Position numbers and translations under genes: made by a program
In this document: one piece after another, positions 2,729 to 45,203 of the stretch
How positions within the stretch are numbered: the stretch's first letter is position 1
How the letters are laid out: the number at the start of each line of letters is the position of its first letter
Origin: Octopus sinensis
Taxonomy: Eukaryota
Direction of reading: 5' to 3'
Assembly (NCBI RefSeq): GCF_006345805.1
Contig: NW_021833742.1
Coordinates: 1-64,000, forward strand
DNA: 64,000 bases
Notes under the pieces: model-generated
Told to the model about the DNA's origin: nothing
Databases searched by the model: none
What the model saw: only the letters and a program-made list of their open reading frames with translations

Positions 2729-4280
2729 TATTGTTAAATTGGACATCTCTAATGCATTTAACACCATTCGCCGCGACTCTATATTGGAGAACTGTCTTGA
2801 ATTTTGTCCCGAAATATACAACTATGTACTCAGCTCATACGCGAAACCATCCACCCTCGTCCATGGCCCTTACCATATTTCCTCGTCCTCTGGGGTTCAA
2901 CAAGGAGACCCATTGGGTCCTGTTCTCTTTTGCCTTGGAATTAATCACATTGTTAAGAGCTGCTCAACCCCGCTAAATGTTTGGTACCTTGATGACTGCA
3001 CCCTCAGAGGTCATCCCGAAACTATCTTCAAGACGCTCGTTGACCTAATTCCGAGACTTGAATGCGTTGGTCTTATACTGAACACTTCAAAAAGTGAAAT
3101 CATTAATTTTGGGTTCCGTGGTGATGAATTCGAGGTTATTGTTTCCTTTTTCAGTGAGATAATTCCCGGAGCGTCCATCACGCCTAGTATCAGTGTGGAG
3201 ATATTAGGCTGCCCATTGACAGATGGTAGAATCAAGGACGCTCTTGAAACTAAGGAAATGCTACTGGAAAAGACTTTTGTTCGTCTTAATTTGTTGGACC
3301 CACATACAGCCTTCTTCCTGCTCAAAAATGCCCTTGGCATCCAAAAACTAAATCAAGTGCTACGAGGGTCACCCTGCTTCTCAGAAAATGATCAACTTCA
3401 TTCTATTAATGTCCTTTTCCGGAAAACAACCGAACGCATCATAAACATCAAATTCGACGATCAAGGCTGGAAACAAGCTTCCCTTCCTGTCTCCTTTGGA
3501 GGTCTTGACATCCGAAATCATATCGATGTGTCCCGCCCCGCATTCCTGTCTTCACTGTACAGCAGTCAAACTCTGGTTCGGAAGATTCTCTATCTCCTCC
3601 CCGAATCTTCAATACCTAAGATGACTACCTACTTTGACAGTTGGAGCGCAAACGAATCGAAGCTGCCGTCGGACTTCTCCTCACAGAAGAGTTATGACAA
3701 GATTGTGTGCGAAGGTCGGTTCGAGAGTCTCCTAAAGACATCGAATCAACACCATAGAGCATGCTTGCTTGCCTGGAGGTCCACGGGGAGTGGAGAATGG
3801 TTGGAAGCCTTCCCGATCGGAAGCTTGGGGACTCTCTTGGATTCTGACAGACTGCGAGTTGGTATCTGTCTACGTATCGGTCTCAAAGTTTGTGAACCAC
3901 ACAAATGCCGCTGTGGTGCATCGATTGATCAATTTGGACTTCACCCTCTTTCTTGTCGAAAAAGCGCTGGTAGATTCCCGAGGCATTCAGCTCTCAACGA
4001 CGTTATAAGAAGAGCTCTCGATTCAATCAGATTCCCATCAGTGCTGGAACCACCTGGATTAGACCGAGGAGATGGAAAACGCCCAGACGGGATGACTATC
4101 TTTCTGTTTTTGGAGGGAAAGCCTCTCGTATGGGATTCAACATGTTCCGACTCCTTGTCCAAGACAAACATGTTGGAAAGTGCCTGCAATGCAGGCACAG
4201 CTGCGAATAAAGCAGAAGACATCAAAAAGAAATATGATGGGCTCACCGATCGTTGCGTTTTCCGGCCGGTTGCTGTCGAA
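2729..4280 (+). mobile_element. 5'- and 3'-truncated CRE-like non-LTR retrotransposon (RT, CCHC, PD-D endonuclease)
   Basis: ORF 2739-4448: LDISNAFN, GVQQGDPLGP, WYLDD, CRCG..HPLSC..RH, RPDG..WDST. Starts within the RT core and breaks off at PVAVE, where an integrase fragment is fused in frame. Confidence 0.88.
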
Positions 4281-4490
4281 AAATATTCGATCAAGCATGT
4301 GCGTGGTAGGGCACGAGCGCCCTGGATACAAGGGCAAGTAGAGAGGTTGCCTGATGGTTTTAATTTTTTAAGGTTCAACCAAAGCATAAAACGTTGGATA
4401 TCTTCAGCAAGTGCCTCTCGTGGATATAATCAAAGACATTGTTTGTGATTACAATAACACAATACATTCCACAATAGGAAAAGTCCCACT
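4278..4490 (+). pseudogene. Ginger-like DDE integrase fragment (copy 1) with a 27-nt intron
   Basis: EKYSIKHVRGRARAPWIQGQVER/FNQSIKRW; GT-AG intron 4346-4372 splits the Arg codon of VER; paralogous to 6720-6860. Confidence 0.8.
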
Positions 4491-4828
4491 GCATTTCTAA
4501 AAATGGCTCAAAGTTGCGTTTTTTTTGTATCGAAGACACTGAACTTAAGTTAAAATTCATTGAAGTAGTGTATTTGTTTATTTAAATTAGGCTCAACACA
4601 ATCTTAATTACTTTGGACGTGATAAATTTTACAGTTTATTGACACTCACCATTTATAGTGCCAGACGTACTGATGTGGCATCTGTGGTATCTAAATGTGT
4701 TTATTGTCAGGTAAATTACCAATTTTATTAATTCTAGTCGAAACGATTGCTTGCGACTAAACCAGCAATAACGCCTATTATTGCTTCTTCCCCAAGAGAA
4801 CGATACATTGTACACCTTTTTGGTATCA

Positions 4829-5021
4829 AATATCCGAACTGAGATGTCAAACGTCATTATTGTGGTTTCTAATATCCGAACTGAGATGTCAAACGTCATT
4901 ATTGTGTTTTCTAATATTCGAACTGAGATGTCAAACGTCATTACTGTGGTTTCTAATATCCGAACTGAGATGTCAAATGTCATTATTGTGTTTTCTAATA
5001 TTCGAACTGAGATGTCAAATA
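4829..5021 (+). repeat. 42-bp tandem array (about 4.5 units) in the left arm of the Tc1-like element
   Basis: Unit AATAT(C/T)CGAACTGAGATGTCAAACGTCATTATTGTG(G/T)TTTCT starts at 4829, 4871, 4913, 4955 and 4997; two variants alternate, giving an 84-bp higher-order period. Confidence 0.95.
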
Positions 5022-5057
5022 TGTTAATGTCAAAATTACGTATCTAAAAAAATATAA

Positions 5058-6221
5058 ATGGATTTTTGTTCGTTCGAAATGAATACTTTTGTTAAAACTA
5101 TGAATACTTCTTCTCGTGTTAGTGAAACATATAATAAAACAAATTTGGAAGCCAAAATGAGAATTATATCTGCTTATGAAAATGATGATGCAGATTGGCA
5201 TATTGTGGCGGAATCGAATGGAGTTAAGCGAAATACAGCTTATAAATGGATACGAAATGCTTCACAACCTAATAAAAAACGCGGAGGATTCAGATGGTCA
5301 AAAATCACAGACAATGAAATATCGAGAATGATAAACTATGTTGAGGAAAATCCTGTCATCACTTTAAGCGAAATTTGTGCGAGACTACTTAATGAAACTG
5401 GAATTTCTATCCATTATTCGACAGCTGCTAAATATTTACATGGAAAATTATTTACAGTTAAAAAAGTATTTTTATATTGGTAAAGGCAAGGTTATAACTG
5501 AAACCAATTTAATGAATTCAGAAGCAAACAAGATGAAAAGGAAAGAATATGTCGAAAAAATAATAAATAGAAAAAGTCGAGACAAAAATATAATTTATAT
5601 GGACGAAACTAATGTAAACTTATTTTTAAGAAAAACTCAAGTATAATTTATTAATGTTGATTTTAGAAGGGGCGCTCGTTAAAAGGGAAAAGATGCATTT
5701 TAAAGACTGCAGCAAACAAGGGACAAAATATTCACATAATTGGAGCCATTAATGAGAACAAATTAATATATTGGGAACGAAGACGCGGACATTTTAAAAA
5801 AGAGGATTGCCAGCAATGGTTCAGAAATATGATCAGAACTACAAATGAAAAATATTCAGAAATTTGTATTGTGATAGACAACGCACCGGTACATTCACAG
5901 TTAGAGAAAATGATTGGAGAAGAATTTCGAGATATTGAAATTATAAGATTGGGACCTTACAGTGCACCATTAAATCTAATAGAGGAATGCTGGAGCGTGC
6001 TTAAGAGTAAACTAAAAAGAAAAATGGCGACAACTGATTTTGTAAGTGCAGAAAATGGACTCACCCTAAAAGAAACCAGGCTACGAATTTTAGAAAATTG
6101 CATAGACACTTGTATTTCTGCAATAACACCAAGAATTTGCTCACGAACATGCAATCATGTTCAGAAACATTTTCCAAGTATTATCGAGATGAACGATTTA
6201 ACTCCCGATGACAATATTTAG
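5058..6221 (+). CDS. DD34E transposase, 3 exons (5058-5465, 5491-5640, 5667/5670-6221), about 370 aa
   Basis: Two phase-0 GT-AG introns (25 nt; 26 or 29 nt) join the three ORF pieces with no stop. HTH N-terminus, YMDETN, VIDNAPVH, LGPYSAPLNLIEE with 34 residues between D and E; AATAAA about 20 nt after the stop. Confidence 0.88.
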
Positions 6222-6289
6222 CAACTTAACATTGATTTCATCAATAAATATCATTTTTTCACTATTGTGCAGAAAATATAGGAACGGAC

Positions 6290-6462
6290 ATTTGACATCA
6301 CAGTTCGTATATTAGAAAACACAATCATGACGTTTGACATCTCAGTTCGGATATTAGAAACCACAATAATGACATTTGACATCTCGGTTCGGATATTAGA
6401 AAACACAATAATGACGTTTAACATCTCAGTTCGGATATTTGACATCCTAGTTCGGATATTCG
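6290..6462 (-). repeat. Inverted 42-bp tandem array (about 3.5 units) in the right arm of the Tc1-like element
   Basis: Reverse complement of the 4829-5021 unit, plus a shortened unit next to the terminus. Confidence 0.93.
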
Positions 6463-7433
6463 ATACCAAAAAGGTGTAAATCTTATCGATTTAAGACGCT
6501 ATTCGACCCGAAATGAAAATTATTCCTGGGTAATTTAGTAATCTAAATAATAGATTCTTGTTTTATTGGATTCCTTTTCAAAATTTGCTATGGTAGAATG
6601 TGCTTTTACCAAATCAGCTAAGGAGATCCGCGGAATCCTAGATGATATGTTTTGTATTATCAAGGGTCCACTTATTCTCCATACTGATAATGGCAACAAG
6701 TTTAGAAATTCTGAAATAAAACAACTTTGTGAAGAATACGAAATTGACCATGTTACCGGACGACCACGAGCCCCGTGGATACAAGGGCAAGTTGAAAGGT
6801 ATTTCTGTGTTTAATTTCAAAAGAATTAACCAATCTTTAAAACGATGGATCTTATCCACGAGTGCATCAAATGGAAATTTTGGATGCTATAAAACATGCG
6901 TGAAGAAAATAGCAAGAGACTACAATAAATCCGTCCGCGAAACTACAAAACAAAGGCCTTTTGACCTCTTGTTCGGAACTGATTTGGAGAAACCAAATAA
7001 AAAACTAACAAATTCTGAGGTCGTGAAAAAAAGGAAAAAAGCCCTTGAAAATATTGTAAAATCGAGAGAAAAAATGAAAAGGCGGAGAAAATGGAAATAT
7101 GATGAAGTTGAAAGTGGCGATAAAATTTTAATACGCCATGATGGGGATGCAAACCCGGGTTATAGAAAATACCCATTATACGACGAGATATCTGCACAAA
7201 AATATATTGTGAAAAATAGGGATCGAGAACTCGTAACGATAATTAATGAAGAGGATGAAAAAGATCAAAGGATATATATTAGCAGAGTAAAAAAACTTGG
7301 TTCTTTTCTATTTCATGAATCACGAAAATAAGCACTAATTTAACTGCAAATATTCATGGGGTTTGTTCTGTGTTTTTGCTCGTATCATATTTACTTAATT
7401 GTGAAATAATTGTGCCATTGTTACAAATTCGAC

Positions 7434-12769: not shown

Positions 12770-13100
12770 TAATGAGTTCTCCGAAATAAAAGTAGATAGA
12801 GCAAACCGACACTGTTATGAAAAACAACAAACCCGATATGTTCGTACATGATAAAACCACAAACACGATGACTCTTGTCGAGTTTGGAATGACGTCCCAG
12901 AATAGCTTGAAACAGATCAAAGTGAAGAAGATTTTAAATAAATTTTTTAGCAAGCGAAGTAGGGATTATTCACAAAATAAAAGTTAAGATAATTGAGGTT
13001 TCTACGTATTACAGAACCACCTTTAATTTCTTAGAATACAAATAGAAACAAAGGCATATATCCAGTTGCTCGTGATTCGGAAAACTATTATACAAGTGTA
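12770..13100 (+). pseudogene. Decayed R4-like RLE fragment
   Basis: TDTVMKNNKPDMFVHDK..LVEFGMTSQNSLKQ, homologous to the RLE domain of elements A and B. Confidence 0.75.
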
Positions 13101-13158
13101 TAAAACCATTCTACAAACAAGTCTGATAAAATACAAATCGCTTTTGCAGATTGATAAC

Positions 13159-14934
13159 TAGGGCAATTTTTTTTTAACCTAAAAACTTCGATTTTTTAAC
13201 CTAAAAATTTTAACTTTTTAACCTAAAAATAACCAAATTTTAACCTATAAAACAAATTTTAACCTAACAAATTTTAACTTAAGAATCATTTATTATACAA
13301 ACATATAACATAATTCTCTATATTTTCAATATTAAAATTTCTGTTATCCCTCATAAAGTTTTTAATTTGAGAGAAGCATCGTTCTATGGAAGAGGATGAA
13401 GGCTGACACTTTAAAAGCATACAATATTCTTCAGGAGAAATTGATGAATTTGTCATTCTTATAATTTGACATAAATCATTTTTTTGTAATCGTTCATTCA
13501 ATATTTTTTCAATTATATCTGATTCGTCGTCAAATTTTTAAATTCTTTAGCTCATTGTAAGCTAACTCTATTGAGGAGTGAGACTTTCAAATTTGCACAA
13601 TAATTCTGCTATTATTAAACTAGTTTTACCTGGAATTGTCGAATAATTTCTAACAATAGAACTTAAGCTTTTTACTAGAGATTCATCTCTTAGGCTATTT
13701 TTTGCAGCCTGAACAATGATTCCATCATCAGGAATTGTTTTGAAAATGTTTATCACATGTATTAAATTTTTTGCATAATAAAATGCAGCAGTTAGCCAAG
13801 TACCCCATCTAGTTAAAACTACATGAGGTGGAATTCCAATTTCATTAAATAGTCGTTTTCTCTTGTTATTTTTTGTTATTGCCGCTTGAATTGATGCAAT
13901 AAGAGAATCAATTTCAGGATAAATAGTCCTGATTTTCATTGAACAATTATGCATCAGATGAGCACACAAGTTACGTGAAATAACCTTGGATATAAAAGCT
14001 TAAGAACTTTTCCAGCTATAATTATATGTTAAATTAAAACCTGCTAGCATATATTTAGCGGAATCTGTTATTAGGAGAAGGAAATTTTGTCTTTCAATTA
14101 AAACGCATTTAATCGTATCGTCAACAATTTGAATAATTGTTTCTTTGGTAGAAGTTTTATCAATTTTTACGAAAGAAATCAAATAAGTTTTATCGGGATT
14201 TTTAAGTATCCCCATTAAAACTGCAACAAATTTTTGACTACGAATAGTGACCTCGTCACTTATGGCGAATACAAGTTGATTTCTAAAAAATTATATATTC
14301 ATAAACCTAAACTTTTCTTGAAATAATACAATATATTCAGTTTTCAATTGTTTAACGCACATTCTTGCTTTGTATTGGGAAGGAAGAGGCAAAGAAGTAT
14401 TCTTGAATAAATTCTTTAGAGGAGGCATAGTCAATTTATGCAAGGGTATATCGCATTGAATAAATGCTTTAGTGACTTGCATTGACCAGTCATCATTGGG
14501 TAACTCGTCCAAACAAGGCTGATAGAAATTATTCTCTAAAAATTATATTAATTTGTAAAAACTTAATAAATTTGAGTGCTTCTTCGATTCTCGGTGAGAA
14601 TTCACAAAATGCTTTTTCTCACACCTGACTGTGCATAAGCAAAGTTGACATTGCAACTCGCCATTCTCTCGTAATAAAAACTCCAGCGGATATTCAATAA
14701 CAATTTTTTTTGCCTTAAAATACATTGTTTTTGCAGTTCTTGGCATACTAAACACCCACGCGCTATTTTAAATAAAGTTAAAATTTTTAACTTTATAAAA
14801 AATTTTTTTAACTTTTTAACTTTATTTTTTTCTTTAATAAGTAACTATTTCATTTAAAAAAATACTTTATTTTTACTTTTAAGCCAAAATACACATTTTC
14901 ATATATTTTAACTTTTTTAACTTAAATTGCCCTA
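13159..14934 (-). mobile_element. hAT transposon (TAGGGCAATT termini; CGGBP/BED-like zinc finger; transposase with 4 mini-introns and frameshifts)
   Basis: TIR TAGGGCAATTT / AAATTGCCCTA; 8-bp TSD TTGATAAC on both sides; CQLC..H..H, SDE, ITDSAKYM, C.AHLMHN, TRWGTW, SIERCFS; introns 14536-14562, 14283-14306, 14016-14040, 13609-13629. Confidence 0.9.
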
Positions 14935-15280: not shown

Positions 15281-15446
15281 CAGTGGTTCTCAACGGTGGG
15301 CGATTCGCCCCCTAGGGGCGATTTTTTTGGTAGGGGGGCGATTTTTTCTGACAGGGGGGCGATGGCTGATTGCTAATATTTGAAAAATTAAAATCTTATG
15401 TTAGAAGTCGATAATCTGTGAAAAAATAAAGATATATAATCGAGTC

Positions 15447-18400
15447 TTTATTAAGAAAGAAACTAATTAACTAAGTAATTTTACTAACTAAGTCCAGAGC
15501 CTTCGAAGTGAGCAGAAGGCGGCACTCCACGCACCTCCTCCCCTTCTTCCTCCTCTTCTCTGGCACTGTAGACCTTGAGAAGGTGCAGTCCAGCGCCTCT
15601 TGCTGACTAAACGTCAGGAAAGGGCTGGATCGGCGAGCATCAAACGAGACACTCTCCAGAGTCCTCTTAAGAACAGTTGACTGTATATAAGCCTGTAGAG
15701 ACTTATCTACATCCAACTGTCTTAAGTACCGCTTGTGGTATTTGGTGACCAGTCCATCCCATGTCATCACCACGGGATGACATGGACTTTGCACTGGTGC
15801 ATCAGTCCTAGCTCGTTTGCAAGGAGGTCATACTTCCTCCTTTTCTCCACTTCCACTATCTGCAAACGGTCTAGGCACGTGATGCCCACCTCCACGATAA
15901 CAATCTCCCCGGTGACCTTATCGTGGACCACAATGTCGGGTCTGTTGTGCTGGACAACAATCGAGGTGCGTATGGGGGTATCCACCTTAATGCACACCCG
16001 CGAGTTCTCACACACCGATTGAACTCGATGGGTTCGCAACTTTCTGGACCGCCTCAAGCCGTACTTATTGCAGAGCAAAAGATGGAGGGACCTCACCACC
16101 TCGTTATGCCTCCATGTGTAATCATGGTAAAGCATACTCCCGCACTTCGTGGCTAAATGGTCAACGGTCATTGCCTTACTCTTACAGTGGTTACACTGTT
16201 TCCGTTGACCATTAAAAAAGTTTCTATCCTGCAAATATGAGAACAACCCTTCTGATCGGGGAGAGTTATTCCCATATTTCAGCCACGTAGATGACGACGA
16301 TACGTCAATGTGCGGGTTGTCCAGGCTGCTAAAGAGAGTCTTGTGAAGGACTTTTAAGTTGATCTTTTTAATTAAAGACTCCTTTTGAAGTTTGATCAAC
16401 TCCTTCACATTAACTTGGGTAGCACCTAGACCATACTTAGCCGACACATAGCCTTTTATGGTCCCTAGGTGTGTACCACGCGCTTTTTCAGCAGCAAGGA
16501 TGGCAGCCTTCCTTTGGGATACACTCGACCCACTCCACAAGGTGTCGTGCATCTTAGTAAGAATTCGCTCACTTAAGTGTACGATGTTACTCAGTCCACG
16601 TCCTAGCTGCCCGCGAGACAAGTACAATCTCTCCTTATTGCTTGCCAACACGTGGACATGATTCTCTCGGAGTACTCTTCGGACAATAAGGTCCATTTCA
16701 TCGTACTCACTCGGCTCGAATTCGATCAGGCCAACGTAGTAGTTTAGCAATGAGATGGCATACTCGTTCAAGGCATGAAATAAGTTCCGTGCATTAAGCC
16801 GAGTCTTACATAACATTGCCGCCTACTACGCACACCCTCCACTACACACTTTCTCGTTTCGGGTGTGATTAATGAGGCTGGACTCTCAACCACACCAAGA
16901 TACTTATATCCTTGGTGTTCCTCCAAGACTTTGACTAGGTCACCACACACAGGGGTGTTAGTCGCCGACTTGTTGTAGTTGAGCTCCAACCCCACGGCCT
17001 TCATGAAACCTTTCAGGACTTTACCCATTGAGTGAAGGATCTCTGAAGACCGAGCGAACAGCTTAATGTCGTCTATGAACATGAGATGGTTGGTGCTAAA
17101 ACACCCTCCTTCATGTTCGATCGACATTTGTTCGAATTGGGCAGTGAGGACTCTACTCAGCGGTTCTAGGCAGAGGACGAACAGCAGCGGAGACATGCTG
17201 TCGCCCTGTAATATGCCCCTCTCTAGTTTCACCTCGCCTATATCGCATTTGTTGTAATTTAGATGGACGTTCCACCTGTCCATCACAGTTGCAACAAATT
17301 TGATAAACCACATTGGCAACTTAAGCCTTCGCAGACACTCAACGAGGTAGGCATGATCAACCGAGTCATATGCCTTCTTCACATCCACCCACATTGACAC
17401 TAGTGAGTTTCCGTGGGCTCTCGCGAGGCATTTGTTGATCAGTGCCTGCTCCTTAGCTCCCTGGCAATCCCGCCGAGTACCTAACTGGTTCTCGGACAGA
17501 ATCCCATTCACCTCCACGAAATTTCTGACCTCAGTAGCCACCACCTTAGTCATCAACTTGTACAGGTTGGGCATACAGGTTATCGGACGATAATCTGTCG
17601 GAGCGGAAGGGTTATCTACTTTAGGGATCAAATAAGTGACCCCAGTACATAACCACTCTGGAATCGAGCCAGGGTCTAGTGTAAACTGTTCGATTGCTCG
17701 ACACATGCAATCATGGATAGGTTTGCAATTTTTAATAAAGAAATTATACACTTTATCGACCCCAGGTGTCTTCCAGTCAGAGAGACGGGTTACTGCTTCA
17801 TCGAACTTCTTGCGGATGTCAGGGACACCACAAGACTCGGTCATCAAGGGAGCATCGGGTCCACAAAACGGAAACGACACACCCTTGCGAGGACGTGCTT
17901 TCCACATACTCCCCCATGTGTCAAGCATTTCGGCCTTTTGCTGGGTACCCTCCTTCGTCTCTCCGTGCAACCGACGATAGAACGACCTGCGATTAAATTC
18001 AAACAGGTTGTTCTCCCGCCTGCGCTGACACCGAGACTCATGAGTTGAGAGCTTCTTCTGATAAACGAGAATCAGCTCCTCCCTCTCTGCCCGGACACGC
18101 CTCAACTCGTTGAGGTCCCATTTGGCAGCTCGTTCCCGACGAAGTAAAGTACGCACCAAGGGGGGAGTCTTGCCCTTGACCCCATTGCTCACATTCAAAA
18201 TGTGCCCAGTCAGCGCTTCCAGCTCGGCTTTCCTTGCGGCTACTTTTGCGGCAATGTTTTCTCTCCATCTACTCTTTGGGGCAGGCCTCTGAGTGATTTC
18301 ATCATAGGTTGTCTGTGCCGAGTACAAATAAAGAGAAATCTCGTCCATTGTCTCCGGAGGCTCACGCACGATCGCGTAAGCTATGGCACGATTGATGCAA

Positions 18401-18875
18401 CCCATCACGTCACTTCTGAGTTGCCACCGAGGTATCTTTCGGGTCACTCTGCGGTCCGCAAGGGGGACAACACGATTCGCAGAGATATGCCTACTAAATA
18501 TCTCCTTAACCTGCAAGAGTAGCGATAACTCACTACTCTGGTGCTCGTGTTGTTCAGAACACGGGGGGCATCCTGACGGCGTAACCGCAGCGGCAGTCCT
18601 CCCCCGCGAGCCAGGAGGAGGGGTCTTGGCCAGCTTCTTCAGTGCATCTAACGATAGGTTCGAGCTAAAGCGTCGATTGAAACACTGAAGCAGGGTAGGC
18701 CACCCATTTCTGGGCATCCTGGAAGCTCTTGCCAACACGGGAAAGGGCGGATTTGCGGATTTAACCCAGTCCTCCCGGGTCGTGCACTCGATCCTTCAGC
18801 AATGGCAAAGACGATGTTCTTGGCCATCGGAGCGTCTGTCTCTCCGATGCGGTTGTCCATCCTGCTCTAGGTATA
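15447..18875 (-). mobile_element. Full-length R4/Dong-like non-LTR retrotransposon B
   Basis: ORFs 18860-18648, 18738-16768, 16816-15767 and 15794-15471 join into one RT-CCHC-RLE protein with three single-base corrections; 3' end TTAATAAA defined by the copy at 45204-45312; (TAA)n run at the 5' junction. Confidence 0.92.
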
Positions 18876-19242
18876 TTATTATTAATAATATGTTAGTTTC
18901 TTGTTGTCCAGGTAGAGCACACATCGAGATAGTAGCACGTTGCATACAGACTTTTGAATTTATATCGAGTCTAATAATATATTATAATATGATATTTTTA
19001 TTATATTTTATTTAAATTTCTAAGCGTGATTTCTAGTTTCTTTATGGGTCGTGCTCAAAAAAAAGTCAGAATGTATAAAGATGAAATATTTTTCTTGGAT
19101 TTATTAAGATCCTCAAGATCCTAATAAACCACTTTGTCTTCAATGTGGTACAATTTTTTCGAATGAGGCAATGACACCGTCTCGTTTGATTGAACATTTA
19201 AAGCGAAAACATCATAATTCAATTGGAAAAAAGCCAGACTTT

Positions 19243-20277
19243 GGCGATATCGTGTTTTAGCGTCTTAAAATCATAAGGGACCAATTTGATTAGAATCGCA
19301 AATAAATTATATTATATTATTTTTTAAAAATTATTATAATTATCAAAATAATTATTATCTGCAACGCTTTACAGTATTTTTGAATGATGTATTGTGGAAG
19401 GCCGTCTGCATCGACTATTATTGTTAATAAACTCAACCAACATATGATTTGTTACTATTTGAATTGAATCACCGAGATTTTGTGGAAATAACAATGACCA
19501 CGCAAGATACGGTCAATTGGTTGGCTCAATATCAGCTAATCAAAAATTCGATGAAATGCGAAAACTGCAGCACGGATTGCCGTCTTCTTTCAGACAAATC
19601 CCGACTCGACAAATTAAAGTGGAAATGTAAAACATGCAATTTCTCAAAATCGATTCGAGATGGCAGCTTTTTCTCACATAGTCATCTTGAATTGAAGCAA
19701 ATTTTGGACTATATCTATTTTTGGGCACTCAACTCAGAAACGATTATCTGCAGCAAAGAATCTCGATCAGACTTTAAAAAAACATCAATTGATTGGGGAA
19801 ACTTTTTACGTGATGTATGCGTAAAGTGGGTCGAGGACCATCCTTGTTCTCTCAGTGGAATTAATTCAGAAACTATGTTGCCAATTGTCGTAGAAGTGGA
19901 TGAAACAAAATATTTTCATCGAAAATACGCAAGAGGTACCTGGCACGAAGGGCATTGGGTTGTTGGTGGAAAAGAGAGGGGCAACCCTAGGAATATTTTT
20001 CTGGTCGAAGTTCCTGATCGGAGTCGAGACACGTTAATAACTATTAATTCTCAGTATCTTTTGTCTTAATAATTCGAATTTTTCACTGTTTTTGTTTTAC
20101 TAAGTTGCTGTAAAAATGTAGTTTTAAAAAAATTTTAATTTAGGGTTGCCACAGTATTGTACATATAAATTTAATTATAATAATTTTTAAAAAATAATAT
20201 AATAATATTAATTTATTTGCGATTTCTAATCAAAATTGGTCCCTTATGATTTTAAGACGCTAAAACACGATATCGCC
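19243..20277 (+). mobile_element. Merlin (IS1016/ISXO2-like) DNA transposon, internally deleted
   Basis: Long TIRs starting GGCGATATCGTGTTTTAGCGTCTTAAAATCATAAGGGACCAA; 8-bp TSD CAGACTTT (19235-19242, 20278-20285); ORF 19449-20069 with C4 zinc ribbon, SIRDGSFF, VEVDET..RKY.RG, WVVGG, VPDRSRDTL; C-terminal catalytic part missing. Confidence 0.92.
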
Positions 20278-21599
20278 CAGACTTTTTTCTAGAATTAAAA
20301 AAGAATTTTGAAAATAAAAACACCTTACCGTCAATCTTAATAAAAATATATCTCAAAATGTCTCTGGATTATCTTATTCATATAAAGTTGCAGAGATAAT
20401 CGCAAAAACTGGTTGCATTATTATTTTAATTTATAGGTAATCCCATTCGATTGCAGAAAATGTCATCCGTCCTTGTTTAAATTTATTTATAAACGATATC
20501 TTACAAAAAGATTCTTCAAATATTATGAAGACTATTCCATTAAGCAAGACACTATACGAAGAAGAATTGATGAAATTTCTAATGAAATTGAACAATCTTT
20601 AATTTTATTTCTCAGAGAACGCAAGTTTTCAGTCCAACTTGACGAATCAGTTGTCGTTGAATCAGTCAATTCACTTTTGATGGCATATGTAAGGTATTAC
20701 TTTTTATAAATACTTTTATAAAGATATTTCGATGATGATTCTATTTTGCAAGAAGAGTCATTATTTGCAAAATCTTTAGTCACGGATACTACAGGATTGT
20801 AATATTCAAAATGTTTGAATCTTATTTATTCTTAGATGATATTCCATTTGAACATATTTTATCGTGCGCAACTGATGGCGCAATGCCTATGGTTGGAAAA
20901 TATCGTAGTTTTTTTTAGCTTTTCTAAAACAAAAATCTCCAATGTCCACTTCAATTCATTGTATTTTACATCGGCATCATTTAATTGCAAAAAAATTATT
21001 TGAAGAATTGAATGCATCAATGCAAATTGTTATCAAAGCTATCAATAAGATTAAAAGAAACAGCAAGTACGATCGTATTTTTCGTGAATACTGCACTAAT
21101 CAAAATGAAGATTATGTTAGGTTACTTTTACATACCGAAGTAAGATGGTTATCCAAGGGAAATTGTCTTGAAAGATTTGTGATATTATTTGATGCAATTG
21201 TTGATTTTGTAAGATTACAAGAAGAATTTAAATGTTTAATTCCTGCAAAATTCATAGAAAAAATATTTTTTATTTTTACTAATAAAATAAGGGGGCGATA
21301 TAAAAATTGGAGGGGCGAAAAAAATTTCAAGGGGGCGATACAAAAATAAAGGTTGAGAACCACTGGTCTAAAGTCATTTATTCTGGCTTGTGGTGAGAAA
21401 TAGCGTTGTATTAGCTTGTCAAAATGCCCTATATTAAAATTAGTTCTCTACATTGGTTTTAAATCGTATTGTTTTATCAAAGAAAAAATTGAAACATGTA
21501 AAAATAATGTATAAATCATCCATGCCCAAATATTTCAAGCAACGTATGTGCACGCGTTTCATTGAACAGTTTTCGCATTACTCCATTGGCCCGACTCTG

Positions 21600-29426: not shown

Positions 29427-30067
29427 ATATTTAAAATCAGTAAAGAACATTAACATCTTATATTTACGATGAGATAACTAGACACAATTGCACTTTACCA
29501 AACAAAGCCTCAGTAACATCATATTCCAATGTCGTCAAATAATAATTACTAAAATCCGAAAAATAAAGTAAAGCTAATTTTAATGAACAACAACTATAAT
29601 AAATATTGTATAGTTTTTAAAACAAATAATATTTTGGAAAGGAAAGATCTTAATGTTTGATGCTATGAAATTGTTCATAATGGTTGTGAAATAATAGTAA
29701 GTGTTAGATATAAATAATAAACAAAATTTCGAATTTGGGGCAGTAATAAAATTAATCAGATTATCTAAAATAAATTTACTATTCATTATTAATGAGGATA
29801 GAACTAATTTAAAGAAAGTCGTCGATTTAAAAAAGAAGATATCCACGGCTAATCTCTTGGAAGTTCTTACACCTTATAAAGAACCCTGTACCAAATTTAA
29901 AATCTTATTGCAACCTAGATGCTTTATATTCCAATAATTCGCCTTCTTATTGATTCAGTCTTATCCATAGGTGCCCTCTCTTCACCGTTACAAATTAGAC
30001 ACAATATGAAAAATTCACTCAAAAAAATTGAAATAATAATCATCAATTTATTAAAAACAAAATTGAA

Positions 30068-34565
<4,498 letters not shown>

Positions 34566-36106
34566 CCTAAAAACAGAACATTTAGGTAAGAAATAGATGG
34601 TGCATAAAACCGAAAATTGATAGTATGATTGATATAATACTATTTAATAGTGTTTATGTTCTATATTTAAGGTAAATAATTCACACTAAAAACTTTTTTA
34701 ATAAAAATAGTATATATTTAATTATAAGAAAAGCACAACATGAAAATAATGCCAATGCTTAATATAATAATTAACTTGTGTATGATATTTACACATATAA
34801 ATATTTTTTATCAACATTTAATGTAATAATATAACTAAATGTATTTAGCTGTCCAATATTGTATTTTTTGTCATCCGATTAATTAAATTCAATTAAAGAA
34901 AGTTTAGCCAAGTATCAAAATTGGAGCATTTTTAAAGAGGAAAAGGTCATTTGTTATATTTTTGGCCTATTTAGCCATCAGGAATGATCCATATTGTAAG
35001 TTTTGTAACAATCGTTAAATTTTAGTTATTTATGGCCAGTTTAAATGGACTTTGATAATAAAAATATTCTGAACGTCACTAGAAATGCCACTCGAACATA
35101 ATTATTTACTTTGACAATACTTAATGTTTATTCTTAATGAGAATTTTAAAAAGGAAATGCATCTATTTATAAACTCGGTCAAGTTTTTGTCTCATTTTCT
35201 CTAATTATTAGGACCATTATCTCTATTTATTGTCTAAGTGGCGATAGCACGGCAGCAGAGATTGTTTTTAATAGGAACTTGTCGACAAATAAATGAATTT
35301 AACCATTGACTAAGTTAAGACTACATTAAAACACTGAATATTACCATTATAATCAAGCTTAATCAACTAATAAAAACGTCGTTAATAATTAAAATTAATC
35401 AACAAATTTTTGTTGCCTTCAAATGTGATATGTGATCGAAATAACTCCATCATTTCTCTCCACTCTCTACGTTTATACCTTTCCGTGCGATAAACAGTCC
35501 AAAAACAAATAAATAGACATAAAGAGATTTTATGGAGATTAACCTTTTTCTACTTCTTTCAATAATATTTCGAAATGGTTACTTAAGACAGTTGGGTATG
35601 AGTCTTTACGTGATGACTGGAGAGAATCTTTTTTGATGCTTCTTGAACAAGTTAGTTAGCGAGAGGCTCCGGATTGCACTTTTTTGGAGGTTTATAGAGC
35701 CAGAAAAAAAGAAAGGATGGAAGTGTCTGAAGTTCTAAGCTTTGGTCACTTTAGACCAGGGGTGTCAAACTCATTTCGCTTTGAGGGCCACATTATGTAA
35801 CAATTTCGCTTCGAGGGCCGCATTTATAATAATTTCTCATTAAGGGAAGATTAATTCTGATATTTATTATGATGAATAACCAAAATAAGAGAAACTAAAT
35901 TATTCAATTATCGCCCTTTAATTTTGGTGAGAGCTGCTTCCAGAGCAGGGGTGTCAAACTCATTTCGCTTTGAGGGCCACATTTTGTAACAATTTCGCTT
36001 CGAGGGCCACATTTATAATAATTTCTCATTAAGGGAAGATTAATTCTGATATTTATTATGATGAATAACCAAAATAAGAGAAACTAAATTATTCAATTAT
36101 CGCCCT

Positions 36107-37579
36107 TTAATTTTGGTGAGAGCTGCTTCCAGAGGATTGACATCTTTTTTTAGATACAATTTTTGATATGTCAGGCTGAGCTATTCGTGTAGTTCCGACT
36201 AAATGTTCATCAGTTAGTCTTGTTCTTTGAGCAGTTTTTGTCATTTTCATAAATGAAAAAAGCTGTTCACACACATATGTCAAACCAAACATAGCAATGA
36301 TTTTTGTTGCAAACTTTTTAAAGTTTTTAAACTTTCCAGGAAGATATGAAAAGAAAGCAGATATTCCAACCTCCAAATATTTAGCATTAAGTATAGAATC
36401 TGATTGGATTTCCAATAGTTCCATTTGTAAACTTTCATCTGCATTGGAAACATTAAAAGAGAATGGTGATGCGAATAATGAAAATTGGTGTTCAAAAAAC
36501 GAAAAATCATTAAATCTTTCTTGAAATTCCTTTAACAACGATTGTCTTTCATACTGAGAAAAATTCATTACATTATGTGCATCAACAGTACTCCTGAGCT
36601 CTTTGCACGTAGGAAAATGAGATAAATCTTCATTTAATAGCTGAAACTTCCATAATTTTATTTTCGAAATAAAACACTTGATATGATCTGACAACTGAGT
36701 TATGAGTTTGTCTTTGCCCTGCAATTCTAAATTAAGGTCGTTCATATGTGTGGTAATATCCACTGCAAATGCCAAATCTTTGATCCAAGATTGACTTTTC
36801 ATTTCGTCTGTGTTTTGCCCTTTCATCTCCATAAATAAAATTATTTCCGATCTCAACAAATAAAATCTTTTAACAACTTTGTGAAGTGATAACAAGCGGA
36901 CTGGAGTATAAAAAGGAATGTCGTGGAACTGATTATTAATATCTGTCAGCAGTTTACTAAACTGCCGGTGGTTGAGGGGATGACCTCTGATATAGTTTAC
37001 TGTTTTCGTGACCAAACTAATGGTATTTTCCATTTTTAATATTTTTGAACACAAATATTGCTGATGAATAATGCAATGAAAATGAGCAAATGATGACCCG
37101 GGATTTACCTTTTCTATTTCAGCTCGCAATTTAGCGGCAACGCCAGCATGTCGTTCAGCCATATTCGGAGCACCATCAGTGCATAAACATACAAGCTTCA
37201 TCAAATCAAACCCATATTCAAAGAGAATTTGTAGAAGTTTTATAAAGATATCCTTACTTGTAGTAATATCGAGCATTGGTACCAGTTCGAGAAATTCTTC
37301 ATAAATATTAAAATCTGATTCACACGCTCTAAAAAAGATTGCTAATTGTGCAATTCCAACGACGTCGACTGTTTCATCGATTGCAATTGAAAAATATTCA
37401 AATTTTAACAAATCAGACTTTAATTGGTATTTCAAATTCAATGCCATTTCATTAATGTGTTCGGCAACAGTATTTCTTGTTAATATCTTTAAACAAGTGG
37501 GCGTCGTCTGGACAAATAATATTCGCTGTTTTAACAAGGCATTGCATGATGAAATCACCATCACAATATGATTTTCCAT
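36107..37579 (-). CDS. hAT transposase, intronless over the catalytic region; N-terminus frameshifted or deleted
   Basis: FSIAIDETVD, CTDGAPNM, HCIIHQQ, TYVCEQLFS, RTRLTDEHL; the upstream piece 37452-37742 is in another frame. Confidence 0.85.
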   Translation of the reverse strand: MENHIVMVISSCNALLKQRILFVQTTPTCLKILTRNTVAEHINEMALNLKYQLKSDLLKFEYFSIAIDETVDVVGIAQLAIFFRACESDFNIYEEFLELVPMLDITTSKDIFIKLLQILFEYGFDLMKLVCLCTDGAPNMAERHAGVAAKLRAEIEKVNPGSSFAHFHCIIHQQYLCSKILKMENTISLVTKTVNYIRGHPLNHRQFSKLLTDINNQFHDIPFYTPVRLLSLHKVVKRFYLLRSEIILFMEMKGQNTDEMKSQSWIKDLAFAVDITTHMNDLNLELQGKDKLITQLSDHIKCFISKIKLWKFQLLNEDLSHFPTCKELRSTVDAHNVMNFSQYERQSLLKEFQERFNDFSFFEHQFSLFASPFSFNVSNADESLQMELLEIQSDSILNAKYLEVGISAFFSYLPGKFKNFKKFATKIIAMFGLTYVCEQLFSFMKMTKTAQRTRLTDEHLVGTTRIAQPDISKIVSKKRCQSSGSSSHQN

Positions 37580-37771
37580 TTACTGCAAGCATTCTGCTGA
37601 TTTCATAGCTTGCAGTGACTAATGCAGTACTTCGACTATGATTTTTTGTAAAATGAGTTTGTAACGCAGATAAATTTTTTCGCAATTCATCTTTCAAGGA
37701 GCGTTTCTTTTTTATTCCAGAAGAAGCACGTGACATTAACAAACACGATTTAAAAATACAATTAAAAATTT

Positions 37772-37776
<5 letters not shown>

Positions 37777-37803
<27 letters not shown>

Positions 37804-38137
37804 TTTTTTTAAGGAAGTTAATAAAAAGATAAAAAACGCCGAAAAGATAAAAATACATAAATATTCTTCGCTCGCGGACCGCTACCGCGTTACGGCAATC
37901 GCTCTGGAGACCGCTGGAGTTGCAGGAAAGGAGACTGACTCGTTCCTCAAAGAGGTCGGGCAGTCCATCGGGAGAAGGCTCAAGGACTCGAGAGAGAGCC
38001 TCTGGTTCCGCCAGCGCATCGGCCTGGCCATTGTTCGGGGCAACGCACACTGCGTCCTCGCCGCTGGAACTTAACTATTTTCGGTCTTAATAAATTAACT
38101 TCCTTAAAAAAAATAAATAAAAAAAAAATAAAAAAAT
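37777..38137 (+). mobile_element. 5'-truncated CRE-like retro-insertion with poly(T) at the left end and poly(A) at the right end
   Basis: Plus strand reads AEKIKIHKYSSLADRY..ALETAG..QRIGLAIVRGNA..* (CRE-type RLE C-terminus), then 3' UTR ATTAACTTCCTT and an A-tail. The left end is a T-tail plus AAGGAAGTTAAT. Direct repeat AAAATTTTAATT flanks both sides. Confidence 0.85.
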
Positions 38138-38449
38138 AAAATTTTAATTAAATGTAAAAAAATAAAAAAATAATTTTTTGCATTTTATAGCCATTAAATC
38201 AGACCTCACTTATGTTTGGTAAAGTACGCTGAGGGCCGCACCTATGTCTTTCGAGGGCCACATGCGGCCCGCGGGCCGCATGTTTGACACCCCTGCTTTA
38301 GACGCTCATTAGTTAGTTTTTTAATTAAATAGTTAATTTTTTTTATTAATAGAGTTTCTTTGTTTAATATTTTATTTTCCTTAGGTGTTATCACATATAT
38401 TTTTTTTAAAATTCAGGGCAAGATAGATTGTTAAACATTTTAAAATGTT

Positions 38450-42190: not shown

Positions 42191-42535
42191 AATCTAATTA
42201 GTTTTCTAATATCTTTTGCTGAACATGCGGGGTTATAAACATTATGGCTCTCGTGAAAGTGCTAATAATAATCGGACTTGAAATTGCAAAAAAAATTCCT
42301 GTATGTTTCAGTTTAAATAATCTGATAAGTAGGGCAATTAGTGCTAAAATGCTATTTTTACTTTGTATATTTTTTTTAATATAAAATTGAATTTGGAATA
42401 ATTATTTTTTAATTTTGTTAAAAAAAACATACATTATAAATGCTATAAATGCTATTTGTAATTTTAAATGCTAATTTTTTTTAAATGCTAATTTAAATTG
42501 CATTTAAATTTTTTTAATGCCACCCATATTAAATA

Positions 42536-43200
42536 AAAAGAGTAAAATATCGTGGAAAAGAACCCATAGTCATATCGAAAAAATTGGCAAATGGTGCCAG
42601 GATAAAGGCTTGTCTTTATCTTTTGAAAAAAGCACTGTTTGCTGGATTGGTGAAAGGAGAAGGAAACCGGATGTTTGTATTAACACCGGAGCGATAAAAC
42701 CCGTGGAGGATCTTAAATACCTCGGAATAGTTGTGGATGCAACTGGTTCATTCAAGATGTATATAAGAAAGAGAAAGAACAAGGCTACCCAAATGTTGAA
42801 AGCTCTGATGCAATTCCAGCTGAAACCGGAAACGTTCTTATACGTATACTCTGCGTGTATAGAACCCTCCTGATCTATGGATCTCAAGGATGGTTCGGAA
42901 GCTGCGAAGGAAAGAAACATATTGATCTTTTGGAGAAAACGCGGAGATATGCCATTAAACTGGCACATGGCTTGGACTTAAAATCCAAACTAACCCCAGA
43001 GCTGGAGGGATCGGTACGATCCATTGAAAAACTGTGCATCACTTAAATAAATAGTGGTGCAAGGGGTCGTTATTTTATCGAAGGGACATCTGGTGTCCCA
43101 TTAGAGTGACCCCAATCAGCAAACAAACTTGTTTCTTCCGTCTCCTTGGTTTCGTTTGGCTCTTCTCTCCCCCTTTTAATCTAGTGACGAGTTTGTTACA
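42536..43200 (+). pseudogene. 3' fragment of a Jockey/I-like LINE nested in the hAT
   Basis: KGLSLSFEKST, LKYLGI, LKPETFLYVY, LEKTRRYAIKLAHG; paralogous to 23577-24425. Confidence 0.8.
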
Positions 43201-43989
43201 TAGAAAATAAACAATTCAATAGTTCAAATAAAATAATTTAGCACGCTATATAGTATTTTGAGTGATGCCAAAACCCAAGTGTTCGTTGCTTAAGAAAGCC
43301 AAGCGTATAGTCTCAGAATTCAAAGATAAGTTTTGTATTGCTGACCATGGCCTTCTATTTTGTTCTCTTTGTTTATCCAAATTCAACTGTGCAAAAAAAT
43401 TTTCTGTCGATTCTCATCGTTCTTCTTTAAAACATCAGAACAATATGCGTATAAATGTAATACAATTATAGGTCATTCATGTGATTCAGTTCAAACAAGA
43501 TTAACTGAATCAATCAAAGTAGATTCGGTTAAAGAAACGATCACGGAAGCTTTTGTACATGCAAACATCCCGCTATACAAATTAAAAAATGATTCGATCA
43601 AAAAAATGTTTAAAACATTTAACATTAACACTCCGTCCGAATTTTCATGCAGAACTACGGTTAAATTTCTTGCACAAAAAAAGATAAATGAGTTGACAAA
43701 ATTATTAACGTATTAAAGTTTATTTTTTAACTTTTAGAAACGAAAAGATTTTTATAATAATTGATGAAACAGATATCCGAAGGATGCAAACCACTAGAAA
43801 ATCATGCCAATGCTGCTATCATCTGCCAAATAATAGATGACGTCATTAGAGAAATGAAGATTATTCGTGACAATTTTTATCTGTTAATCTCAGATGCCGC
43901 TCCTTATAATTTCTGGTGATATAAAAGTATCTAAATAAATAGGCGGTAAAACTTTAATGGTCATGTATAATAACATGCATCATGTGACC

Positions 43990-44508
43990 CAGGTGTTCTC
44001 AACCGGGGGCGAATCGCCCCCCTAGGGCGAAAATTTTGTACAGGGGGGATAATTTTGTACAGGGGCGATAATATATTTAATAAAAAATAAAATTTATATT
44101 TATTAAAAATTGTTTTAATAATATTTTTAATGGCAAGCCTAATAATTTAGACTCTAAGTGGATTTAGTTTTGTCAATCATAATACACAATGTGAAAAAAT
44201 AGACTGGAAGTGTGTTATAGAGGCGATATACGTTTAAAGTTGAGCAGAATTAAACCCGACATAGAATATTTAGCGAGTAAACATCAATATCAAGGGTCTC
44301 ACTAATAATTTTTAATAAAAATTCAATTTTTTACATTTGATTTATAATTTTATATTTTGATTTTTGAGTTATGTACAAAAAACAACCAATTAAGGGACAA
44401 TGCCCAAAAATTTTTAAATTGTATGTGGACAAGGGGGCGATAAAATTTCAAAGGGGGGCGACAAAATATCTAAGGGGGCGATGAACAAAAAAAGGTTGAG
44501 AATGCCTG
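43990..44508 (+). mobile_element. Non-autonomous Buster-type hAT nested in the hAT
   Basis: TIR CAGGTGTTCTCAACC / GGTTGAGAATGCCTG; GGGGCGA repeats as in the 15281 element; remnant RGDIRLKLSRIKPDI..HQYQGSH*; TSD only partly conserved. Confidence 0.82.
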
Positions 44509-45203
44509 ATGTAAATAATCCCGATATTAAGTTGAAATTAACGGAGATAAAATTTTAATGTTATTTTTATTATTTTGGCGCCTGGGGATCATATCGAACA
44601 CAGAGAGAGGATGCGTAGTCTGATTGGGAATGTCGGGATCACCTAATTAATCTTGTTTTCTGGCCTGACGGTGCTCTTGTTTTTTAAATAAATAAATTTT
44701 TATTATTTTAAGTTATAGATTTTACAATTTAATGCTAGATTTGATCATTTAAGTGCTAATTTTTTAAATTATAAATGCTAGATTTAGCGCTAAAAATTTT
44801 TTTTAAGTGCTAGAAAAAAATTGCCCTACTGATAAGAATTCATTAATCCTCTTATCTACATCGATATTATTCAGTCATGATTATTTGTGTTTTAATTTTA
44901 TACATTACACAAAGTTGAAGTCACCAGACCGTATCACGTGGATACAATTGGTACCTTTCTCATTTTTTCAATTTTGATCTGTTGTAAATCTTCAAAGATA
45001 CTACTGGAATTTTACTAAACAAAATTGATTTTTCTTTTTATTACAAAAAATTCGGATTCTGTAAATCGACTGAATCATTCAACGCTATAGATTTCGCTTA
45101 ATGATATTTGGATTTTCTTCATTTTTAAGGCCAAATTCTCGACAGAAGTGAATTTCTATTTATATTAGTACTTAATTGTGTTTCCTCAAACGATTTCCTT
45201 TAG

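Follow-up and report, generated by a model that had tools for sequence, protein, structure and literature searches.

What lies in the window, the whole 64,000-nt stretch that we analyzed, and whose DNA is it? As the preliminary description had proposed, introns interrupt transposase genes of four unrelated families (IS630-like, Ginger-like, Buster, and TAGGGC hAT). These share the window with a nested LINE and Merlin, an intronless hAT, and the genes CHD1 and Zic:

4278..4497, plus strand: fragment of a Ginger2/Tdd-like integrase-type transposase with one intron, 4346-4372 (27 nt; shared site 243, phase 2; the identical intron sequence occurs in locus L184)
4502..4812, plus strand: 5' part of a second Ginger2/Tdd-like transposase, with introns 4565-4590 (26 nt) and 4711-4737 (27 nt)
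4811..6478, plus strand: IS630/Tc1-superfamily element, inserted at a TA inside that Ginger-like gene
5058-6221, plus strand: IS630 coding sequence, a 369-aa DD34E transposase, intact once GT-AG introns 1 (5466-5490, 25 nt) and 2 (5641-5669, 29 nt) are removed
6479..7298, plus strand: 3' part of the second Ginger2/Tdd-like transposase (rve core), with introns 6530-6553 (24 nt) and 6799-6823 (25 nt)
13159..14934, minus strand: hAT1 (TAGGGC ends, 8-bp TSD, DUF659-like transposase), with four GT-AG introns, 14536-14562, 14283-14306, 14016-14040, and 13606-13629
15281..21365, plus strand: Buster-type hAT (CAGTGG ends, 8-bp TSD with central TA), 3'-truncated, with nested LINE and Merlin and GT-AG introns 20412-20436 (25 nt) and 20694-20723 (30 nt)
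19243..20277, plus strand: Merlin (IS1595-like), nested in Buster, its sense ORF intronless
29927..34565 (start approximate), minus strand: dicyemid CHD1, an ab initio model, our gene control
35946..38295, minus strand: intronless hAT, a counterexample whose frame runs uninterrupted for 490 codons, without any intron call
42330..44828, plus strand: hAT2 (TAGGGC ends, 8-bp TSD), with a truncated transposase (43265-43989) and introns 43449-43471, 43710-43737, and 43916-43942, which occupy the same sites as hAT1 introns 1-3
55925..56935, plus strand: Zic gene, which marks the contig as dicyemid

Source organism and identity of the elements

Judged by its sequence, the contig is DNA of a dicyemid, a parasite of the octopus kidney, co-assembled with that of the host octopus. 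We call it dicyemid because its Zic gene matches ZicB of Dicyema acuticephalum at 91% (ZicA at 85%); other matches of near-full coverage reach at most 69%, save one of 98% that is labeled octopus and lies on a 37.7-kb contig. The co-assembly is indicated by a second CHD1 in the assembly, one with a long intron. The host assembly holds much parasite DNA, with some parasite genes databased as octopus proteins, and more than one dicyemid species may be present in it. The parasite CHD1 has 24 predicted introns in its ab initio model (median 25 nt, 6.0 per kb of CDS), one of which, 32850-32873, corresponds to a 24-nt gap in a contig of public run X1. Runs X1 and X2 leave 29675-32342 uncovered and cover hAT1 thinly, and these stretches were left out of the evidence; runs X3 and X6 cover almost nothing. 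Published dicyemid introns have a median of 27 bp (accessible text of PMC6543705), with splice signals reduced to GTa/AG (accessible text of PMC13644364).

The IS630 element has long TIRs with 42-bp tandem repeats and a TA target, and its transposase combines an HTH with a DDE_3 domain spaced D-81-D-34-E, which assigns it at superfamily level to IS630/Tc1/mariner. The Buster element was assigned by its 8-bp TSD with central TA, as expected of Busters, its CAG-type TIRs, and its nearness to intronless 600-aa host hATs, the sequences with which it was compared. The TAGGGC elements have the 8-bp TSD, short TIRs, and transposase type of hATs, and may belong to the hAT-19/CGGBP-like subclass. A relative has DUF659/hAT dimerisation as its top Atlas match (L173, 0.97), and a homologue carries PF04937 (P0121). 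One match came from a protein search queried with a hAT1 exon; hAT relatives were absent from viral contigs, and prokaryote genome contigs gave three weak matches.

The Ginger-like proteins, 400-460 aa long, join an rve core to an H2C2 finger; because they end inside TIR-bounded units of 1.8-2.2 kb, there is no room for a reverse transcriptase. Of the 12 loci searched, four have TGT..ACA TIRs, and three of these four carry introns at shared sites; the 5-bp TSDs at L073, L079, L181, and L187 are the Tdd state, not that of metazoan Ginger2. The nearest named matches are microsporidian KRBA2/SCAND3-like proteins, a type tied to GINGER2 (PMC3575427). The Ginger2/Tdd placement is putative and draws on these features and matches; the tree contains no reference Ginger2 sequences. 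The second Ginger-like gene was split by the IS630 insertion, and its introns 4565-4590 and 4711-4737 occur also in an uninterrupted sister (L070). No Ginger gene was found at 26550-27750, and 57922-57957 held only a 12-residue motif; viral contigs gave eight weak integrase matches. The elements do not look domesticated: IS630, Buster, and Ginger are multi-copy, and hAT1 has 8-bp TSDs at ~20 distinct insertion sites.

Tests of the short introns

Are these segments real introns? All 16 that had been claimed were found in the window, every one GT..AG. Their short size stood up, with a measured range of 23-30 nt in place of the proposed 21-30 (the boundary of 43449-43471 was read by eye, the aligner having placed that intron differently). 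The reported resemblance to gene introns also held, with a median of 26 nt in transposons against 25 nt in the ab initio CHD1 model; because dicyemid introns are generally short (median 27), the size of the transposon introns needs no special explanation. Intron removal restores the frame, the introns are exact insertions relative to intronless homologues, and the positions are conserved as described, recurring among diverged paralogous lineages. Both IS630 introns are gap-free insertions against 4/4 true intronless references, a fifth having been set aside as the wrong ORF. A 26-nt version of IS630 intron 2, ending at 5666, was rejected: sister copies have TCG where the window has its TAG.

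The inserts are AT-rich, 22-37 nt long, and of the form GT(A/T)...(T/A)AG. Among seven terminal pairs, GT-AG scored best (22204, against 20362 with no intron), followed by a TT..TT decoy (21583, 82 calls). Given the AT richness of the inserts, this test is weak alone, and we replaced it with one imposing no splice rule. In 25 loci, 60/88 unconstrained inserts of 20-38 nt fit GT..AG when a slide of 4 nt and a tolerance of ±3 nt are allowed, whereas 3/88 fit the reverse-complement CT..AC. Across 82 introns from lineage representatives (median 26 nt, 79% AT), interior identity was 0.41 whether the introns compared occupy one site or different sites; the sites are fixed while intron interiors turn over completely. 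Single unshared calls in decayed copies were left out (L054, L058, L234, L199, L205, L210/211, and L172). Buster intron 1 was seen in six sisters, and an apparent count of 0/7 with GT..AG kept arises because the window copy has lost 1 nt next to the acceptor, which offsets the comparison.

Is there RNA in which an intron is missing? An X1 contig of 276 nt spans 308 window nt of Buster, with 34 gap letters. Its length is what a sister copy would measure once the intron corresponding to 20694-20723 is taken out (307-31 or 306-30), and none of 11 genomic sisters lacks the intron. Removal of this intron from RNA is thus indirectly indicated, from a run whose type is not on record; the support covers one transposon intron of 16 and is contig-length arithmetic, not raw junction reads. 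Run contigs also skip two minus-strand GT-AG segments of Merlin, 19415-19441 and 19772-19802.

The transposases are under purifying selection, with dN well below dS in 6/6 pairs (dS saturated in three). ORF-based annotation would, as expected, score the elements as dead, and for intact ones such as sister copies (9/24 hAT1 copies are intact after splicing) it would be mistaken, because standard gene and repeat finders miss introns <30 nt. For the decayed window copies the verdict would be correct: IS630 is the only transposase there that is intact after splicing, hAT1 has three frameshifts, Buster and hAT2 are truncated, and Ginger is interrupted and 5'-truncated.

Distribution and origin of the introns

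How widespread are the introns among related elements? Two broader claims of the preliminary description gave way here. "Systematic intronisation" is not supported: introns are confined to particular lineages, coexisting with intronless hAT, Buster, and Ginger lineages and with 6/7 IS630-like ones. Nor is a gene-like density, with 1.1-3.3 per kb in transposons vs. 6.0 per kb in CHD1 (~20-55% of the CHD1 value). Introns were absent from the sampled Merlin (0/6) and MULE (0/4) loci, and the window LINE frames run uninterrupted over 950 and 675 codons. A piggyBac search returned mostly host copies. Loci were chosen by similarity to intron-bearing queries, and so the lineage counts that follow are not a census. 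Shared sites were found in 27/34 Ginger-like loci (~16 lineages), where intronless lineages lie on the same contigs as intron-bearing copies and some lineages gained a later intron at site 385. They were also found in 16/26 hAT loci plus both window copies (six lineages), some lineages having added later introns at sites 349 and 324. Among IS630-like lineages of parasite type, 1/7 carries introns, and Buster lineages differ in their sites. Three Buster loci (L142, L204, and L217) match host copies at 99%; we rejected host-to-parasite transfer, as their repeat-rich flanks point to unplaced host contigs.

Taken together, these are probably ordinary spliceosomal introns of dicyemid size in mobile transposon lineages, likely gained per lineage and likely kept as cut-and-paste elements copy DNA. 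Under this reading, each transposon lineage would have gained its introns separately within the dicyemid line, and gain may have been cheap, with a spliceosome that needs little signal. Elements copied as DNA would bypass spliced RNA and so retain their introns. Once fixed, an intron would have to retain its GT, its AG, and a length that can still be spliced; a copy failing this would yield no transposase. From comparisons that are unrooted as to the direction of change, we infer that gain within the dicyemid line fits IS630 and Buster best, is likely for Ginger, and is open for the TAGGGC hATs.

Could the introns instead predate dicyemids, having only shrunk in a genome-wide miniaturization, with intronless relatives having lost them or arrived separately? 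Precedents exist: accessible text reports conserved introns with prevailing loss in CACTA transposases (PMC4158355) and 1-4 introns, some common with host genes, in Ginger1 (PMC2836005). This alternative is most plausible for the TAGGGC hATs. Their sites 61, 139, and 220 are common to deep lineages (terminal branches 0.6-0.9) that form no clade in free trees and lie as far from each other as from outside sequences; however, monophyly of the intron-bearing hATs is neither rejected nor shown (AU p = 0.45). Also against great age, 0/158 outside hAT ORFs end at site 61 or 220 and 152/158 run through 220, while two end near 139 and seven near 349, compared with ends scattered elsewhere; these ORFs are possibly transcript-derived, and searches favor continuous ORFs. 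For the other families, both introns are missing from L234, the IS630 lineage closest to that of the window (53% identity). We compared intron positions in outside homologues, as had been proposed, and the few genomic relatives found lack the window's sites: Buster on host chromosomes (0/14), host IS630-like copies, and the Ginger-like L269, which has four tiny introns of its own elsewhere. On balance, we regard ancient introns as unlikely.

Alternatively, selection on the elements could maintain the introns, either through mimicry of mRNA (export, escape from silencing) or through stage-specific splicing that keeps transposition in check, as the P element does. Introns were gained in four families unrelated to each other, with the later additions noted above, and the intron-bearing Ginger clade radiated widely, in a quick tree whose outside rows sit in an open fork beside the intron-bearing ones. 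Introns shield transgenes from HUSH in human cells (accessible text of PMC8770142). Parasite-type contigs carry Piwi-domain genes; a TASOR-domain search found no match in parasite, host, or controls alike. However, intronless families are multi-copy with long open frames, which implies that introns are not required. The intronless LINE and Merlin are well covered by the run holding the spliced contigs, although depth does not rank expression, and comparison of the 82 intron interiors revealed no conserved regulatory motif. We therefore think such selection rather improbable, and the data suggest that no special intron function is needed. That the segments are chance AT-rich insertions or mobile Introners, not spliced introns, is very improbable: the window copies are mostly decayed and the AT-rich decoy removes similar segments, but deep lineages share sites with GT..AG kept, multi-copy families are intact only once spliced, unconstrained inserts favor GT-AG, an X1 contig has the spliced length, and different-site identity (mean 0.41, maximum 0.70 over 2973 pairs of transposon introns only) argues against a recent Introner.

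Returning to ordinary introns gained per lineage, a bolder extension is conceivable, if doubtful: new introns of 22-35 nt may arise almost freely, and resident transposons may gain them stepwise and become locked to the host spliceosome. If so, intron count would serve as a clock of residence time and would hinder horizontal escape, intron-bearing lineages might outlast intronless ones through better expression or less silencing, and the spliced antisense Merlin RNA would be a permissive spliceosome in action. The parasite's transposons would then be a natural, replicated intron-gain experiment in an animal. Animals seldom allow intron gain to be observed. The present case brings together ~20 intron sites in no fewer than four unrelated transposase groups, all still mobile and resident in a single animal, with intronless relatives as controls. 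How introns originate, and what they are worth to a selfish element, thereby become testable with ordinary RNA and small-RNA data.

Comparison with known systems

Tiny dicyemid introns are already known, as are introns in transposases (Ginger1, CACTA, TLEWI, and those of Paramecium, whose introns are tiny). We found no prior report of dicyemid transposon introns in the literature searched, whose scope left aside most subscription journals, Repbase, and supplements. The introns here resemble published dicyemid introns in length (26 vs. 27), AT richness, GT(A/T) donor, and bare AG acceptor, but those of the accessible texts lie in host genes rather than in mobile transposase genes (PMC6543705, PMC6736024, and PMC13644364); the word "transpos" is absent from PMC6736024 and PMC6543705 as accessed.

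In the accessible text of PMC2836005, Ginger1 and Ginger2/Tdd share with our elements an integrase-like DDE domain, an H2C2 finger, and TGT..ACA ends, and GT-AG introns are conserved between Ginger1 families as they are here. The elements here differ in resembling Ginger2/KRBA2-type proteins while having the 5-bp TSD of TDD-4/5 (4 bp in metazoan Ginger2), in being ~440 aa with no sign of OTU/Ulp1 tails, and in introns of 22-37 nt, introns being given there for Ginger1 only.

The Paramecium IS630-Tc1 elements Sardine, Thon, and Anchois likewise have predicted introns in transposon ORFs, but in a ciliate and one superfamily, as "predicted introns" and "a potential intron" in a supplement legend (accessible text of PMC3464196). 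TLEWI, a bivalve Tc1-like group (bioRxiv 10.1101/656579), is also IS630/Tc1/mariner, with 2-5 GT-AG introns gained in the host lineage at group-conserved positions; it has a DD36E motif, is present in few copies, for the most part has no TIRs or TSDs, and is interpreted as domesticated, whereas our element is DD34E, has complete TIRs and a TA target, and includes recent copies. CACTA elements (accessible text of PMC4158355) are mobile, and their families share intron sites while varying in intron number, as here; however, they are plant elements with ancestral introns and prevailing loss, whereas the four superfamily-level groups here are usually single-ORF, and gain is the more probable direction.

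Source of the contig and introns in its transposons

Whose genome do these transposons inhabit? The Octopus sinensis assembly (2.72 Gb, 13,516 contigs), in which the window is C10213:1-64000, holds a second CHD1 gene on the chromosome-scale contig C16, where 95 residues of one exon of the window's CHD1 are split by ~1.1 kb, and therefore contains two animals. For the window's Zic, identity is 91% to Dicyema acuticephalum ZicB and 85% to ZicA; the remaining near-full-coverage matches reach at most 69%, except for one of 98% that lies on a 37.7-kb contig and is labelled as octopus. Thus, as judged by sequence comparison, the two CHD1 genes and the Zic identities indicate that the contig is dicyemid DNA co-assembled with its cephalopod host. 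A large share of the dicyemid genome lies inside this assembly, on contigs of up to 1.3 Mb (e.g., C1794, C8702, C9497, C7755, and C12467), and dicyemid Zic and KRBA2-like integrases (proteins P0013, P0133, P0135, and P0148) are entered in databases under octopus. Dicyemid introns are reported to have a median of 27 bp, with two thirds below 30 (PMC6543705), and signals reduced to GTa/AG (PMC13644364).

The preliminary description had claimed tiny GT-AG introns in several unrelated transposon families. A custom spliced protein-to-DNA aligner, run against outside proteins or intronless relatives, recovered 16 of 16 in the window (23–30 nt, GT..AG), distributed over four unrelated groups (IS630-like, Ginger-like, Buster hAT, and TAGGGC hAT). 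The non-Ginger elements are as follows:

4811-6478, IS630-like element: two introns, gap-free insertions relative to 4/4 valid intronless references
13159-14934, minus strand, hAT1 (TAGGGC hAT): four introns
42330-44828, hAT2 (TAGGGC hAT): three introns, at the same sites as those of hAT1
Buster hAT: two introns

One of the four intronless IS630 references is a host-chromosome copy. Once spliced, the IS630 ORF encodes an intact 369-aa DD34E transposase, the only intact copy in the window; its target is a TA within the Ginger-like gene, four introns of which lie on its two sides. That these transposon introns are real is well supported.

The elements are nested, with IS630 within Ginger (4502-7298) and a LINE and a Merlin within Buster (15281-21365); a Merlin-free Buster form (joint 19233 to 20277) occurs in a contig of X1, one of the public sequencing runs aligned to the window. 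The long inverted ends of the IS630-like element (4818-5020 and 6287-6475) are made of 42-bp tandem repeats, and hAT2 contains an RT-like fragment and a Buster-type MITE (43990-44508). Elsewhere are an internally deleted pogo-like element with terminal repeats and a weak DDE_1 match (28355-29360), translated text suggestive of a tRNA gene (53400-53470, minus strand), and a gene-like remnant with possible short introns (26600-27750), for which a profile rejected Ginger identity.

Age, maintenance, and lineage distribution

How old are the introns, and how widely are they shared? Their positions had been called conserved, and many Ginger-like and TAGGGC hAT lineages do have sites in common. Ginger-like introns occupy shared sites 79, 120, 162, and 243 (some also 385) in 27/34 loci from ~16 lineages. 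Among TAGGGC hATs, sites 61, 139, 220, and/or 349 are common to 16 of 26 loci and both window copies, representing six lineages; nine further loci are intronless and one has a single unverified call. The 82 introns of lineage representatives have a median length of 26 nt and are 79% AT. Interior identity is the same between introns at the same site (0.41; 348 pairs) and at different sites (0.41; 2973 pairs): ends and length are preserved while interiors have turned over. Precise intron absence was found in none of the close sisters (0/25-27 for hAT1, 0/7-11 for Buster, and 0/5-8 for IS630), no Introner signal was seen among the transposon introns, and dN is well below dS in 6/6 pairs. The introns are old and maintained, in elements that, by their sequences, are mobile rather than domesticated. 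There are ~20 hAT1 insertions, each with a distinct 8-bp TSD, and 9/24 hAT1 copies are intact once spliced; TGT..ACA TIRs with 5-bp TSDs were found in 4/12 Ginger loci searched.

Sharing across lineages did not extend to the "systematic intronisation" and gene-like intron density first proposed. Introns occur in particular lineages only, coexisting with intronless IS630, Ginger, Buster, hAT, Merlin, and MULE loci, and their density is 1.1–3.3 per kb vs. 6.0 per kb CDS for the window's CHD1 (24 introns, median 25 nt; ab initio model). Among 44 IS630-like loci (loci in these comparisons were picked by similarity, not randomly), both introns occur only in the window's own family; the two are absent from the 36 others, 11 of them with open frames of 290–413 aa, and from the nearest sister (53% identity). 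One of seven IS630-like lineages on small contigs bears introns. Contigs C1794, C7757, and C12459 each hold intronless and intron-bearing Ginger lineages, and introns occur in four Buster-like lineages, for the most part at differing sites, but in none of three others and in 0/14 host-chromosome Buster copies. Merlin (six loci) and MULE (four loci) gave no intron calls. Intronless examples in the window are the Merlin sense ORF and the hAT at 35946-38295; near the 5' end of that hAT is a short GC-rich, LINE-end-like insert (37767-38149) between 56-nt inverted A/T-rich arms.

Were the introns gained or inherited? The IS630 contrast (a sister without introns) and the Buster contrast (host copies without introns) favor gain. 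Outside homologues also count in favor of gain, with the caution that the searches favor unbroken ORFs. Outside Ginger-like proteins are continuous at 162 and 243 (10/10), and L269 (748-1900), a locus of the same Ginger clade on an outside metagenome contig, is continuous at 79, 120, 162, and 243; its own GT-AG introns, four in number and 28–44 nt long, occupy other positions, one just 8 nt away from a site used in dicyemids. Site 220 lies within 152 of the 158 outside hAT proteins, and no end falls at 61 or 220; the ten best are Logan, ENA, or JGI ORFs on 1.7–3.3-kb contigs, and such ORFs could be transcript-derived. In a quick Ginger tree, 23 intron-bearing rows form a clade (SH-aLRT 96), and two further rows of this kind sit beside outside sequences in an open fork. 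The hAT tree has a star-like shape, and when unconstrained it does not unite its intron-bearing lineages in a single clade; their monophyly was not rejected (p-AU 0.45).

Splicing and its possible role

With boundaries left free in 88 inserts from 25 lineage representatives, GT..AG fit 60/88 (4-nt slide, ±3 nt) and CT..AC 3/88. GT-AG scored best of seven end pairs; an AT-rich decoy scored close. Contigs of four runs, none recorded as RNA, were aligned to 13000-32999, a stretch that lies apart from the IS630 and Ginger introns. An X1 contig over 32763-32999 has 24 gap letters, as many as CHD1 intron 32850-32873 has nucleotides, and X1 therefore likely contains spliced RNA. Another, of 276 nt, spans 308 nt of Buster (20585-20892) with 34 gap letters, which the 30-nt intron and two differences private to the window copy (3 nt and 1 nt) account for; sisters measure 307 or 306 nt over this stretch with introns of 31 or 30 nt, giving exactly 276 when spliced. 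This contig-length arithmetic indirectly indicates removal of the Buster intron from RNA. Among the rows listed, hAT1 gave no junction.

Two minus-strand GT-AG segments of Merlin are also absent from run contigs: 19415-19441 (27 nt; X1) and 19772-19802 (31 nt; X1 and X2, a second run), the latter within sense coding sequence that is conserved. Among genomic sisters, exact loss was seen for neither segment (0/18 and 0/19 spanning rows, respectively, a few rows repeating loci), one having a different, partial deletion of the first. The skipped segments likely reflect spliced antisense or read-through RNA, a hint of a permissive dicyemid spliceosome.

Most likely, the dicyemid splices transposase pre-mRNA with its ordinary spliceosome, on indirect evidence for one intron and by extension for the rest. 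Short AT-rich inserts reading GT...AG (~22–35 nt) would be open to splicing from the start and close to neutral, cut-and-paste copying would hand them to all descendants, and selection for a working transposase would fix their ends and length. The window's LINE frames, copied through RNA, are unbroken (950 and 675 codons). The introns might serve escape from silencing, with a precedent in HUSH silencing in human cells (PMC8770142), or control by splicing. Several Piwi-domain genes are present on small parasite-type contigs of the assembly (G000:C9497:513456, C8702:422118, C12468:143639-160016, and C7758:66767; one 506-codon open frame), and a TASOR-domain search was uninformative, with no match in parasite, host, or controls. 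The functional account in the preliminary description exceeds this evidence; splicing by the ordinary spliceosome remains the preferred reading.

Comparison with known systems

Introns are also borne by the P element, Ac, and Tc1 transposases. Reported cases further include Ginger1 transposases with one to four introns (PMC2836005), CACTA transposases (PMC4158355), bivalve TLEWI transposases (bioRxiv 10.1101/656579, which calls introns in DNA transposases rare), and Paramecium IS630-Tc1 elements, where they are predictions (PMC3464196), with family context in PMC3575427 and PMC8097297. Our literature searches, apart from supplements and Repbase, turned up no report of dicyemid transposon introns. 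The dicyemid Ginger2/KRBA2-like loci with 5-bp TSDs (L073, L079, L181, and L187) have microsporidian sequences as nearest named relatives; they resemble Dictyostelium TDD-4/5 in TSD length, unlike animal Ginger2, for which 4 bp is reported. Transposase introns as such are thus already known, and what is new is their breadth, spanning four unrelated active groups and ~20 sites in one minimal-intron animal, where intronless controls stand beside the intron-bearing transposase groups.
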